A stretch of DNA of 64,000 bases, from the NCBI GenBank assembly GCA_047456315.1, contig CP179889.1, forward strand, positions 576,776-640,775, in the 5' to 3' direction. A model generated the notes under the pieces. It did no database searches. It was not told where the DNA came from and worked only from the letters and a program-made list of their open reading frames with translations. Below, in pieces: positions 33,281-35,430 of this stretch. The first letter of the stretch is position 1; each line of letters begins with the position of its first letter. Source of the stretch: Candidatus Nealsonbacteria bacterium. GTDB lineage: Bacteria > Patescibacteriota > Minisyncoccia > Minisyncoccales > JANBVM01. The position numbers and the translations under genes are program-made.

Positions 33281-33300
33281 AAAAAACCGCCTTCTCGGCG
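33281..33300 (-). terminator. Intrinsic terminator after tRNA-Asn
   Basis: Minus strand reads CGCCGAGAAGGCG followed by GTTTTTT. Confidence 0.65.
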
Positions 33301-33311
33301 ATTTTTGTTTG

Positions 33312-33383
33312 CTCCGCGGGCAGGACTCGAACCCGCAACAACTGGATTAACAGTCCAGCGTTCTACCATTGAACTACCGCGGA
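33312..33383 (-). tRNA. tRNA-Asn (GTT)
   Basis: Hand-folded. Acceptor TCCGCGG/CCGCGGA; D-arm GTTC-AATGGTA-GAAC; anticodon arm CTGGA-CTGTTAA-TCCAG; T-arm GCGGG-TTCGAGT-CCTGC. No encoded CCA. Confidence 0.9.
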
Positions 33384-33397
33384 ATAATTAACAAAAT

Positions 33398-34069
33398 TTA
33401 TGTTTTGAAAAGACCAGATATCCAGCCTATAATTTTTCTCTGTATATTAACATCACTTATTCTTATCCTAAACACACCGTAAATGTTTTTTGTTTTTCTT
33501 AGTCGGTTGGGATTATTTTTTACAATATAAGTTTTTGTAAATTGACTAAGAGGAATTTTGGTAAGTTTTGACCAAAATTTTTTAGCTTTCTTCTCATCCA
33601 AGTTATCATGTAAATATATACTTCCTCGAAATTTCGCTTCAGGTATCTTACAAAATTCTCGAAGCCAACTCATCATAAATTTTATAGAACGGGAATCCGA
33701 ATTACTAAAAGCAACATGTTTATCTCCTTTCTCTCCTTCAGCAAAATACATAGATACCCCAGCTATGAACCTATCCCTTTTTGATAAATCACCTAATTCC
33801 CTTATTCCTTCTTTAATTAATCTTTTTGTTAGTTCTTCTCGCGCTCTTATTTTATTCATTGCTGCAATAATACTTCCTTTCAGGGCACCAGTTTTTTTAT
33901 TTAAATACAATTTTTCAAGTTGACTCTTACTCAATCTAACATCCCTAACCCATAAACTTACAGAAGACCTCGAAACACCTAACGTTTTCTGAATTTCTTT
34001 TATCGATATTCCTTTTTTCCGTAATTTTCTGGCCTTTAATTTTAATTCTAATTTACCTACATATACCAT
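33398..34069 (-). CDS. HTH protein with a LAGLIDADG-like homing-endonuclease-type C-terminal domain
   Basis: N-terminal HTH resembling resolvase or IS30 types (KGISIKEIQKTLGVSRSSVSLWVRDV). The central FIAGVSMYFAEGEKGD...VAFSNSD...FWSKLTKIP segment resembles LAGLIDADG-type endonuclease folds. Assigned from memory of motifs only. Confidence 0.45.
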   Translation of the reverse strand: MVYVGKLELKLKARKLRKKGISIKEIQKTLGVSRSSVSLWVRDVRLSKSQLEKLYLNKKTGALKGSIIAAMNKIRAREELTKRLIKEGIRELGDLSKRDRFIAGVSMYFAEGEKGDKHVAFSNSDSRSIKFMMSWLREFCKIPEAKFRGSIYLHDNLDEKKAKKFWSKLTKIPLSQFTKTYIVKNNPNRLRKTKNIYGVFRIRISDVNIQRKIIGWISGLFKT

Positions 34070-34080
34070 TATTGAATCTT

Positions 34081-34143
34081 CTCATATCGAACCTACAATT
34101 TCAAGTCTTATACCACCCGCACTACCATTACGCCACGACGGAA
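34081..34143 (-). pseudogene. Truncated, degenerate tRNA-like fragment
   Basis: Minus strand reads TCCGTCGTGGCGTAATGGTAGTGCGGGTGGTATAAGACTTGAAATTGTAGGTTCGATATGAG. Acceptor 5' strand, D-arm and GGTTCGA T-loop are recognisable. The anticodon stem does not pair, and there is no T-stem or acceptor 3' strand. The fragment runs into the ATG of the HTH ORF. Confidence 0.45.
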
Positions 34144-34185
34144 TGATATGTAAATATAATATAAAATCTTGAGTTTGTGAAGAGT

Positions 34186-35430
34186 CTAGTATCCCTTTAA
34201 TTTTTTCAAGCTTCTGTGTTCACGAATCTTTTCTAATGCCTTGGCTTCAATTTGACGAATTCTTTCACGAGTTACTCCAAATTCCTGACCAACCTCCTCT
34301 AAAGTATGAGTAATACCGTCTTCTAAACCAAATCTCATTGATAAGATTCTTTGCTCTCTTTCTGTTAAGTCAACTAAAATCTCACCCAATCTCTCTCTTA
34401 ACAGCGATCTGGCTGCATCCAAAGAAGGAGGTATGCCTTTTTCATCCTTAATAAATTCAGCCAAAATCGAATCATCTTCATTGTCACCTACTGGTGTTTC
34501 TAAAGACACTGTACGCTGAGAGATTTTTGCTAAATGACGCACTTTTGCAACTTCAATACCCATTTCAGCAGCAATTTCTTCGGGCAATGAGGGCCTGCCT
34601 AAGCTTTTCAAAAGCTTTCTTCTTACTTTATTATATTTTGAAAGCGTTTCAACCATGTGAACAGGAATTCTGATTGTTCTTGACTGATCAGCTAAAGCGC
34701 GACTAATTGCCTGCCTTATCCACCAAGTAGCATAGGTTGAAAACTTATAACCTCTTCTCCAGTCAAATTTCTCCACTGCCCTAAAAAGCCCCAGATTTCC
34801 TTCTTGAATCAAATCTAAGATGGTTAAATTAGGAGACCTGCCAATATATTTTTTAGCAATTGAAACAACTAATCTTAAATTAGCTCTGGCTAAGTGTTTT
34901 TTTGCCTCTATATCTCCTTTTTCAATTTTCTTTGCCAGTTCTTTTTCCTGATCAGCAGTTAAGAAATCAACTCTGCCAATTTCTTTTAAATACATCTGTA
35001 CAGGGTCTATTTTTCTTTTTTTACCCACAGGCCTGCCTTTTGTTGGTATTAAAAGCTCTTTTACTTCCTTTATCTCAATTCCATTTTCCTCTAATCTGTC
35101 GTAAAGCGCTTCCAGCCCTGAAATGTCTTTCTCAAAATTAGGAAAAGTGTAAAGGATTTCAGAACTGCTGATAAACCTTCTTTCTCTGGCTTTTTCAATC
35201 AATTTCTCAATTTTCTCCTCTGTAAAAATTCCTTTATAACGGCCTCTTCTGACAGGTTTTTGCTTTCTTGTTTCTGCTTTCTTAAAAATCCTTCTTATAA
35301 CCTTTACTCTCTTTGCTGGTTTTGTTTTTTTAACCTTCTTTAGTTTTCTCTTTTTCACCTTCTTTGGTTTTGTTTTTTTAACTCTTTTTTTAATTGAAGT
35401 TCGTTTTGAACGCTTTTTTATCTTTGGCAT
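34186..35430 (-). CDS. rpoD: RNA polymerase primary sigma factor (sigma-70)
   Basis: Regions 1.2 to 4.2 are present ([37 protein letters not shown]; [20 protein letters not shown]). Lys-rich N-terminus. Confidence 0.93.

Follow-up and report, generated by a model that had tools for sequence, protein, structure and literature searches.

In a 64,000-nt stretch of contig CP179889.1 from Candidatus Nealsonbacteria, referred to here as the window, a 223-residue open reading frame (ORF) on the minus strand lies between the remains of one tRNA-Asn gene and a second, intact tRNA-Asn gene. From comparison of this locus with those of its relatives, we think it probable that the ORF is a free-standing, single-domain homing-endonuclease gene of the LAGLIDADG type, with an added N-terminal helix-turn-helix (HTH), within a cassette that carries its own replacement tRNA. 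Members of the ORF family are found throughout the candidate phyla radiation (CPR), immediately 5' of tRNA genes, and the lineage in the window is tied to tRNA-Asn. An original prediction from the letters of the window had proposed disruption of a tRNA gene by a selfish endonuclease gene, and this proposal fits the sporadic presence of the ORF and the empty sites among close relatives. As we discuss below, multiple observations bear on this reading.

First, the segment between rpoD and the ORF is a genuine relic of a tRNA-Asn gene, with homology stopping at the T-loop. It retains the acceptor 5' strand, the D-arm, the 5' strands of the anticodon stem and T-stem, and the T-loop sequence GGTTCGA; the anticodon loop and 3' anticodon stem have been rewritten, and the 3' strands of the T-stem and acceptor stem are absent. 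Thus, it has the two marks of a tRNA pseudogene, recognisable tRNA homology and loss of functionally needed parts. A tRNA-Asn profile built from 18 genes of relatives, spliced where needed and with the window sequence excluded, matched the segment in nhmmer over model positions 1-57 (E=3.5e-5), ending at GGTTCGA, and only two strong matches to this profile were found in the 64-kb window, the relic and the working tRNA-Asn (E=2e-14). Compared with the intact tRNA-Asn of L057, an ORF-less relative, the relic was identical at 40 of 57 positions as far as the T-loop, the same score as that of the window's working tRNA-Asn, but over the 16 nt past the T-loop it was identical at 1 position, where real tRNAs were identical at 14-16. 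In an independent repeat search, the D-arm and T-loop segments of the relic and tRNA-Asn emerged as direct repeats; the spacing is 759-760 nt in each pair, and the two copies are therefore collinear. The profile E value and the L057 identity counts rule out a chance match in AT-rich sequence. A single intron-split tRNA, in which the relic would be joined to a 3' half far away and the intron would contain the ORF, is also ruled out, as no 3' half follows: after the ORF there are only 14 nt, an intact tRNA, and a likely terminator, and the relic acceptor strand (TCCGTCG) mismatches the 3' end of tRNA-Asn.

These results bear out the predicted anatomy in outline and correct it in detail. The 223-residue ORF exists, it ends 14 nt before an intact tRNA-Asn(GTT) that both ARAGORN and Rfam call, and the fragment is, as proposed, a tRNA remnant missing everything 3' of the T-loop. 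The remnant does follow rpoD, but it begins at 34142 rather than 34143 and is separated from the rpoD stop codon at 34186 by 43 nt. The ATG of the ORF, placed originally about 12 nt after the T-loop, is 17 nt after the GGTTCGA that ends at 34087, and this GGTTCGA, although it marks the end of relic homology, is no longer part of a tRNA and now lies in the spacer of the ORF promoter. A covariance search, suggested as a check, did not detect the fragment: in a scan of the region at E<=10, the general tRNA model of Rfam left the relic uncalled, and the other Rfam matches overlapped the real tRNA.

Second, the ORF is present sporadically, and close relatives have intact empty sites. A scan with the ORF yielded 53 loci that range from Parcubacteria to Microgenomates and encode proteins of 39-77% identity; in 52 of these, tRNA-Asn begins 3-88 nt downstream of the ORF or shares 10 nt with it. 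A scan with rpoD yielded 80 loci, none of which carries the ORF. In the closest ORF-less loci (L054-L057 and L059), rpoD is followed by 45-160 nt and then by a single intact, intronless tRNA-Asn, at the spot occupied by the relic in the window; relatives with an uninterrupted tRNA at this position, the comparison called for originally, thus do exist. The rpoD gene marks an ancestral rpoD-tRNA-Asn junction in many relatives. Over its C-terminal 274 residues, the rpoD product is 55-87% identical to that of the window in 30 of the 53 ORF-bearing loci and 84% identical in ORF-less L054, a value as high as those of the ORF-bearing relatives (70-87%), which indicates that carriers and non-carriers are interleaved. 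Sporadic presence together with intact empty sites in close relatives is a hallmark of homing-endonuclease genes.

The empty sites also speak against the idea that the element had entered a two-tRNA cluster, since L054-L057 and L059 have one tRNA-Asn after rpoD. Moreover, the relic D-arm is of the 'GGCGCAATGGTAGCGC' type, as in L056 and L057, whereas the working tRNA-Asn is of a different type (GTAGTTCAATGGTAGAAC), and in L007 and L024 the types of relic and working tRNA are swapped. These differences point to separate origins of the two copies and argue against an ancestral two-tRNA cluster. Because the relic holds the ancestral spot, the sequence types differ, and tRNA-Asn accompanies the ORF in 52 of 53 loci, the second tRNA-Asn most likely arrived with the element or was made by it. 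In one Wildermuthbacteria locus of the Parcubacteria (L011, 4706-4956), the tRNA-Asn has the acceptor stem TCCCCTG/CGGGGGA otherwise found in Microgenomates loci, and the ORF is of Parcubacteria type, 71% identical to that of the window; this mismatch may reflect recombination or transfer of the tRNA part alone.

Third, the link to tRNA genes extends well beyond tRNA-Asn. We inspected the genomic context of 13 distant representatives of the family (30-37% identity), 11 of which could be assessed. A tRNA gene on the same strand starts -38 to +33 nt from the ORF stop codon in eight of the 11, and a tRNA gene lies within 100 nt in ten, leaving one without. The neighbouring tRNAs were Lys-CTT (three), Val-TAC, Phe-GAA (two, one with a group I intron), Arg-TCT, and Met-CAT. 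One of these loci (L136) mirrors the window, in that its ORF is preceded by the 5' half of a tRNA-Lys, which breaks off in the anticodon loop, and followed by an intact tRNA-Lys; two others (L134 and L144) have a T-loop-like GTTCGA directly before the ATG. At L144 and L146, the ORF is terminated by a TAA that belongs to the anticodon loop of tRNA-Lys (CTT|AA). Likewise, 12 of 131 family representatives (P0133, P0148, P0157, P0168, P0187, P0189, P0210, P0225, P0230, P0237, P0238, and P0250) end in translations of a tRNA D-arm (VAQL.., PVAQW, SSVGRA), compared with none in control windows of the same proteins, indicating that these reading frames run into the adjacent tRNA gene. The recurrence of tRNA neighbours in distant members shows that the tRNA link is a property of the family and is not limited to the window locus; the whole family, which comprises 4118 clusters at 50% identity (E<=1e-3), appears to be tied to tRNA genes. 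Group I introns also occur in the tRNAs that neighbour the ORFs of L135 and L139.

Fourth, the protein combines an HTH with what is likely a divergent single LAGLIDADG-like domain. In databases the protein is named 'helix-turn-helix domain-containing protein' or 'transcriptional regulator', and an identical protein is on record from 'Candidatus Nealsonbacteria'. The HTH of the original prediction was borne out by Pfam matches of the 223-residue protein to HTH_23 (6.9e-6), HTH_3 (1.9e-5), HTH_7, a resolvase family (8.6e-4), and HTH_38 (0.099); this N-terminal region also resembles the HTHs of IS21 and IS630 transposases (E ~5e-5). In a diverse set of 123 family members sharing 27-52% identity, HTH_23 was present in 101, residues G104, Y108, E111, and G112 were at least 90% conserved, and K114 was the majority residue. 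A profile of these 123 members matched I-DmoI in the PDB at E=1.3e-4, with no other nuclease family listed, and a profile of the C-terminal domain alone did so at E=1.1e-4; the profile match is to domain 2 of I-DmoI. With hhalign, E was 2.5e-5 and the probability 75% over 44 columns, and the aligned stretch comprises the second LAGLIDADG helix of I-DmoI with the two strands and the helix that follow it (GLYVAEGDKTLKRLRIWNKNKALLEIVSRWL, aligned with MYFAEGEKGDKHVAFSNSDSRSIKFMMSWL). The motif helix reads ...GLYVAEGDK in I-DmoI and ...SMYFAEGEK in the window protein and is followed by a matching strand-strand-helix, and the family conserves a Glu and a Lys that correspond to E117 and K120 of I-DmoI, which we take to be active-site residues. 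The two proteins also differ: I-DmoI is a two-domain monomer, is archaeal, and is encoded in rRNA introns, whereas the window protein has one LAGLIDADG-like domain, adds the N-terminal HTH and a 45-residue helix, escapes the Pfam LAGLIDADG models, and is encoded by a free-standing gene beside a tRNA gene.

An AlphaFold2 model computed from a deep alignment had a mean predicted local distance difference test score (pLDDT) of 95.9 and comprised an HTH of three short helices (residues 4-18, 23-30, and 34-40), the 45-residue helix, and an alpha/beta domain, in which a helix-strand-strand-helix follows the motif and the first elements fit the LAGLIDADG order. An earlier model from 20 close homologues reached a pLDDT of 72.8, and its Foldseek matches were meaningless. 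The LAGLIDADG-like segment that had been noticed by eye was upheld by the family profile but not by Pfam, and the sequence profile pointed to LAGLIDADG (I-DmoI), with no significant match in the fold search. Single-sequence phmmer against the PDB gave only weak KaiB matches over the linker helix (E ~4e-3; the same in NCBIfam), which were judged to be spurious. Four long representatives (P0197, 560 residues; P0223, 504; P0242, 531; P0254, 380), in which the query matched in 2-3 stretches, have two to three times the usual length and may have arisen by fusion or as tandem copies. A ratio of nonsynonymous to synonymous substitution rates (dN/dS) of 0.06-0.20 shows that purifying selection acts on the ORF.

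Fifth, the tRNA-Asn gene that follows the ORF commonly harbors a group I intron. ARAGORN called this tRNA-Asn in only 7 of the 53 loci. Elsewhere, the 5' exon ends in ...CUGU and is followed by 180-280 nt that begin with a GCAG guide sequence, which can pair with CUGU if a U-G pair is included, and end in ...G|UAA. Rfam Intron_gpI scored 61-109 bits in 11 of 16 loci tested. The intron is itself ORF-less, lies between anticodon positions 35 and 36 of tRNA-Asn(GUU), and is common across Parcubacteria and Microgenomates; examples are L018 (4700-5032) and L025 (4725-5035). In the other 5 of the 16 loci (L005, L009, L011, L014, and L019) it fell below the Rfam gathering threshold, which suggests a second intron subtype. 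Among the 54 ORF-bearing loci (the 53 and the window), both exons were identified in 41, intron-like sequence follows CUGU in 3, 8 are intronless (the window, L001-4, L010, L021, and L045), and 2 were left unassigned. The intron was thus present in 44 of 52 ORF-bearing loci and in 1 of 17 ORF-less loci with tRNA-Asn downstream of rpoD (Fisher p=6e-9, uncorrected for phylogeny and for sets that differ in taxonomic make-up). The single case (L071, 4212-4560), an ORF-less locus with an intron-containing tRNA-Asn directly after rpoD, shows that the intron can exist without an adjacent endonuclease-like gene, and all four combinations of ORF and intron exist. A group I intron that has no ORF and lies within the neighbouring target gene, as in collaborative homing, is therefore lacking in the window and found in about 44 of 52 ORF-bearing loci. 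As to whether the target coincides with the intron insertion site, the upstream tRNA-Asn piece in two Microgenomates loci (L032 and L040) ends exactly at the 5' splice site (...CTGT), and in Parcubacteria the homology ends at the T-loop.

Finally, the distal relic has been turned to the service of the ORF. The ORF promoter, made from the anticodon and T-arm region of the relic, consists of a -35 element TTGAAA (34104-34099), a 17-nt spacer containing GGTTCGA, a TG-extended -10 element GAAGAT (34081-34076), and 6 nt before the ATG. An element of the form TTGACA-17-(TGn)GAnAAT with at least 9 of 12 matches was present in 41 of 52 loci, compared with 8% of shuffles, and in 35 of 52 loci exactly 6 nt separate the end of the -10 element from the ATG, and a Shine-Dalgarno sequence is lacking; such spacing implies that the mRNA is probably leaderless. 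In eight loci (L008, L010, L011, L014, L020, L021, L026, and L028) the promoter directly adjoins the rpoD stop codon and nothing else of the relic is left, yet GGTTCGA is kept, suggesting that the distal relic survives because it now serves the ORF, for which it may act as promoter, operator, or homology arm. In L032 and L040, in the region ~110 to 60 nt upstream of the ORF, a conserved stretch (..TCGTACCA..TCTCTA.TAATAAATA.TTGACA) separates the tRNA piece from the promoter. Directly 5' of the relic in the window, TTCACA-17-TATATT is probably the promoter of the former tRNA-Asn gene, although the number of such scan matches in the region equals the shuffle expectation; a -10-like element lies at the same distance before the intact tRNA-Asn at the empty sites L054 and L057. 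If still active, TTCACA-17-TATATT would yield ORF transcripts with a tRNA-half leader. As the gap after the ORF is only 14 nt and no promoter of the working tRNA-Asn is visible in it, this tRNA is presumably co-transcribed with the ORF.

These features can be combined in a working model. The unit would have three parts, the dead 5' part of a tRNA-Asn (positions 1 to ~58), the ORF, and a working replacement tRNA-Asn, with the anticodon-arm/T-arm segment of the dead tRNA recruited as a promoter for leaderless mRNA. The enzyme, probably a dimer, would cut tRNA-Asn alleles that lack the cassette, and repair from the carrier allele would transfer promoter, ORF, and functional tRNA-Asn together; the resident 5' part would stay behind as a scar, and the imported tRNA would become the functional gene. 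Cleavage in the palindromic TTCGAA of the T-loop, leaving a 4-nt 3' overhang (TCGA), is suggested by the sharp end of homology after GGTTCGA, which recurs in other subfamilies. Recognition may reach back to the anticodon region, perhaps via the HTH, as suggested by the intron at 35/36 of the functional copy and the rewritten anticodon loop of the scar. By the logic of collaborative homing (PMC3984707), intron carriers and the rewritten scar would be immune. For the intronless tRNA of the window, the model would require a resistant variant, a repressed enzyme, given a promoter matching at 8 of 12 positions, or a domesticated protein. In its widest form the model would extend to thousands of lineages of CPR HTH-LAGLIDADG homing endonucleases that specialise on tRNA genes, cut in or near the TTCGAA of the universally conserved T-loop, leave the old 5' part as a scar recycled into their own promoter, and make expression of an essential tRNA dependent on read-through of a selfish gene; we regard this generalisation as possible but tentative.

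Several observations weigh against a homing endonuclease. The window's tRNA-Asn is intronless and has a normal anticodon loop and T-arm, and an active enzyme that targets tRNA-Asn should therefore cut its own chromosome unless this variant is resistant; no consistent signature of resistance was found among the eight intronless ORF-bearing loci. The alignment with I-DmoI covers only the first 45-60 residues of the domain, and no similarity to I-CreI was found. Pfam LAGLIDADG_1/2/3 went unmatched: at E<=10 the window protein gave HTH families only, for the 123 members at E<=1 the 25 most-matched Pfam families were all of HTH type, and NCBIfam and PHROGs likewise provided no LAGLIDADG model for the protein. 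The C-terminal 130 residues are thus unrecognised by these three curated libraries, and a 57-residue I-DmoI fragment used as a query against the protein database gave no match. A Foldseek search of the pLDDT-95.9 model against PDB and BFVD returned nothing at E<=1e-3, with I-DmoI at E 0.13-0.26 and OmpA-like folds ranked higher. The upstream tRNA piece of L032 and L040 lies ~60 nt from the promoter, so that a breakpoint at the T-loop is not universal, and the window's own copy of the ORF promoter is weak. Last, a cycle of invasion, decay, and loss was not seen, as each of the 53 loci has an intact ORF and none a pseudogenised copy, and the ORF has by and large diverged in step with rpoD; co-divergence, the lack of pseudogenes, and low dN/dS look more like a long-resident selected gene than an endonuclease that invades, decays, and is lost.

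The last of these points lead to a serious, if on balance unlikely, alternative, in which the ORF encodes a domesticated LAGLIDADG protein that no longer cuts and serves as a group I maturase or as an HTH regulator of the ORF-tRNA-Asn unit, with the relic an old scar and the gene kept by the host. Fungal mitochondrial LAGLIDADG maturases help group I introns to fold, and the tight statistical link between the ORF and the intron in the adjacent tRNA would suit such a role, as would strong purifying selection without decayed copies, co-divergence with rpoD across Parcubacteria and Microgenomates, and the tolerance of an intronless copy in the window; the GGTTCGA conserved in the promoter spacer could be an autoregulatory operator. 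As to co-dependence of protein and intron, the strong association is set against the persistence of the ORF beside intronless tRNAs in the window and seven other loci, the intron of ORF-less L071, and most of the distant family members, which lie beside intronless tRNAs. In addition, E111, G112, and K114, at the positions of the catalytic motif, are conserved across 123 diverse members, and the closest relatives lack the gene altogether, which would be surprising if it served the host.

An ordinary HTH transcription factor, whose C-terminal likeness to LAGLIDADG proteins is superficial and whose neighbouring relic stems from an unrelated local duplication of tRNA-Asn, would account for the database names, for the restriction of Pfam, NCBIfam, and PHROGs matches to HTH models, and for the lack of significant fold matches. 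We consider it improbable, because the match to I-DmoI was significant in three separate comparisons and spans the catalytic motif, the ORF-tRNA architecture recurs with different tRNAs, scars, and ORF ends that overlap the tRNA, and close relatives have empty sites. It is very improbable that the ORF belongs to a transposon or integrative element directed at tRNA genes, for which the HTH protein would serve as transposase or recombinase: despite the transposase- and resolvase-like HTH and the direct repeat of tRNA sequence flanking the ORF, Pfam found no DDE, serine, or tyrosine recombinase domain in the protein or its family, the repeat search found no terminal inverted repeats flanking the ORF, the duplication covers the 5' portion of the tRNA (positions 1-58), and the ORF has no paralogue elsewhere in the 64-kb window. 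An insertion sequence was rejected given the missing inverted repeats and a resemblance to transposases confined to their N-terminal HTHs, and the locus does not qualify as an integrase-type island, since such islands have a tyrosine or serine recombinase gene and duplicate the 3' end of a tRNA.

A homing endonuclease with the properties described above would have partial precedents. I-TevI is a modular GIY-YIG enzyme, in which a DNA-binding module that includes an HTH and a cutting module contact sites ~20 bp apart, an intron at the binding site confers immunity, and the protein represses its own synthesis. Bipartite recognition and binding to its own promoter may have parallels in the window protein, although we offer this analogy only as a lead. 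To our knowledge, cooperation between a free-standing endonuclease and a group I intron that lacks an ORF is documented only in a few phage protein-coding genes. In these cases of collaborative homing (F-CphI and the psbA intron of cyanophage S-PM2; mobE and the I-TevIII intron of T4; PMC3984707, PMC2790892, PMC6083498), the enzymes are of HNH or Endo VII type; the strong association of intron and endonuclease-like gene is shared by the loci studied here, but these involve a LAGLIDADG-like protein, a cellular bacterium, a tRNA gene, and a duplicated 5' tRNA part, and the copy in the window lost, or never had, the intron. T4 SegB (PMC2330249) is encoded by a free-standing homing-endonuclease gene among tRNA genes and promotes inheritance of the surrounding tRNA region, but it is a GIY-YIG enzyme of a phage for which neither a tRNA scar nor a replacement-tRNA architecture is described. 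In CPR bacteria, group I introns abound in the rRNA genes and code for LAGLIDADG enzymes of a single domain, such as I-ShaI (PMC11270868). The family described here resembles these in its CPR hosts, its single LAGLIDADG-like domain, the homodimer expected from it, and its association with group I introns in stable-RNA genes, and it differs in that the I-ShaI type is encoded inside rRNA introns and recognised by LAGLIDADG_1/2/3, whereas genes of the window family lie outside the intron, next to tRNA genes. That study mentions neither tRNA genes nor HTH domains nor free-standing genes, and group I introns in CPR tRNAs receive a passing mention elsewhere (PMC8172020). Text searches of the literature found no description of an HTH-LAGLIDADG-like family or of the ORF-tRNA architecture.

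If this reading is correct, the principle of collaborative homing would extend to cellular bacteria, tRNA genes, and a LAGLIDADG-type enzyme in a family of thousands of clusters. It would also account for the apparent lack of tRNA-Asn in CPR genomes, where ARAGORN misses intron-containing genes, and for the stray tRNA halves and widespread 'HTH-domain protein' of these genomes. The relic would clearly illustrate how a dead tRNA gene can give rise to a promoter. Should the enzymes be active, the family would offer a large natural collection of small endonucleases that act as dimers and have an additional HTH reader, every one adapted to a different, highly conserved sequence of a tRNA gene; such a collection would be of interest for enzyme engineering.

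Features of the dnaG-rpoD-ORF-tRNA-Asn locus in the window.
Feature	Position	Strand	Basis or remark
dnaG	37162-35435	-	first gene of the minus-strand order dnaG, rpoD, relic, ORF, tRNA-Asn
rpoD (sigma-70), upstream neighbour of the relic	34186..35430	-	ORF list; stop at 34186
promoter-like TTCACA-17-TATATT directly 5' of the relic	34153..34181	-	consensus scan, 10/12
tRNA-Asn relic, positions 1 to ~58	34087..34142	-	nhmmer, alignments, direct repeats
ORF's own sigma-70-type promoter, overlapping the distal relic	34076..34104	-	conserved across loci; 8/12 in the window
223-residue ORF	33398..34069	-	HTH residues 10-43, long helix 48-92, likely LAGLIDADG-like domain ~93-223
HTH coding region, residues 10-43	33941..34042	-	Pfam HTH_23 6.9e-6, HTH_3 1.9e-5
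LAGLIDADG-type motif FIAGVSMYFAEGEK, residues 101-114	33728..33769	-	family alignments; aligns with I-DmoI ...FIKGLYVAEGDK
tRNA-Asn(GUU), intact, intronless	33311..33383	-	ARAGORN; Rfam 72.5 bits
GC hairpin (CGCCGAGAAGGCGG) then T6	33281..33301	-	read by eye from the sequence

The original prediction also placed the ORF next to a repeat array. The nearest tandem repeat (35319-35390; period 24, 3 copies) lies within rpoD and encodes the Lys-rich N-terminal tail of its product; as a coding repeat it is ruled out as a CRISPR-like array, and no link to the ORF was seen. A generic consensus scan of the window for promoters and terminators called neither the ORF promoter nor the hairpin terminator. 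Nevertheless, the GC hairpin and its T-run downstream of tRNA-Asn form a likely intrinsic terminator that would end the ORF-tRNA unit, and the gene beyond them is unrelated.

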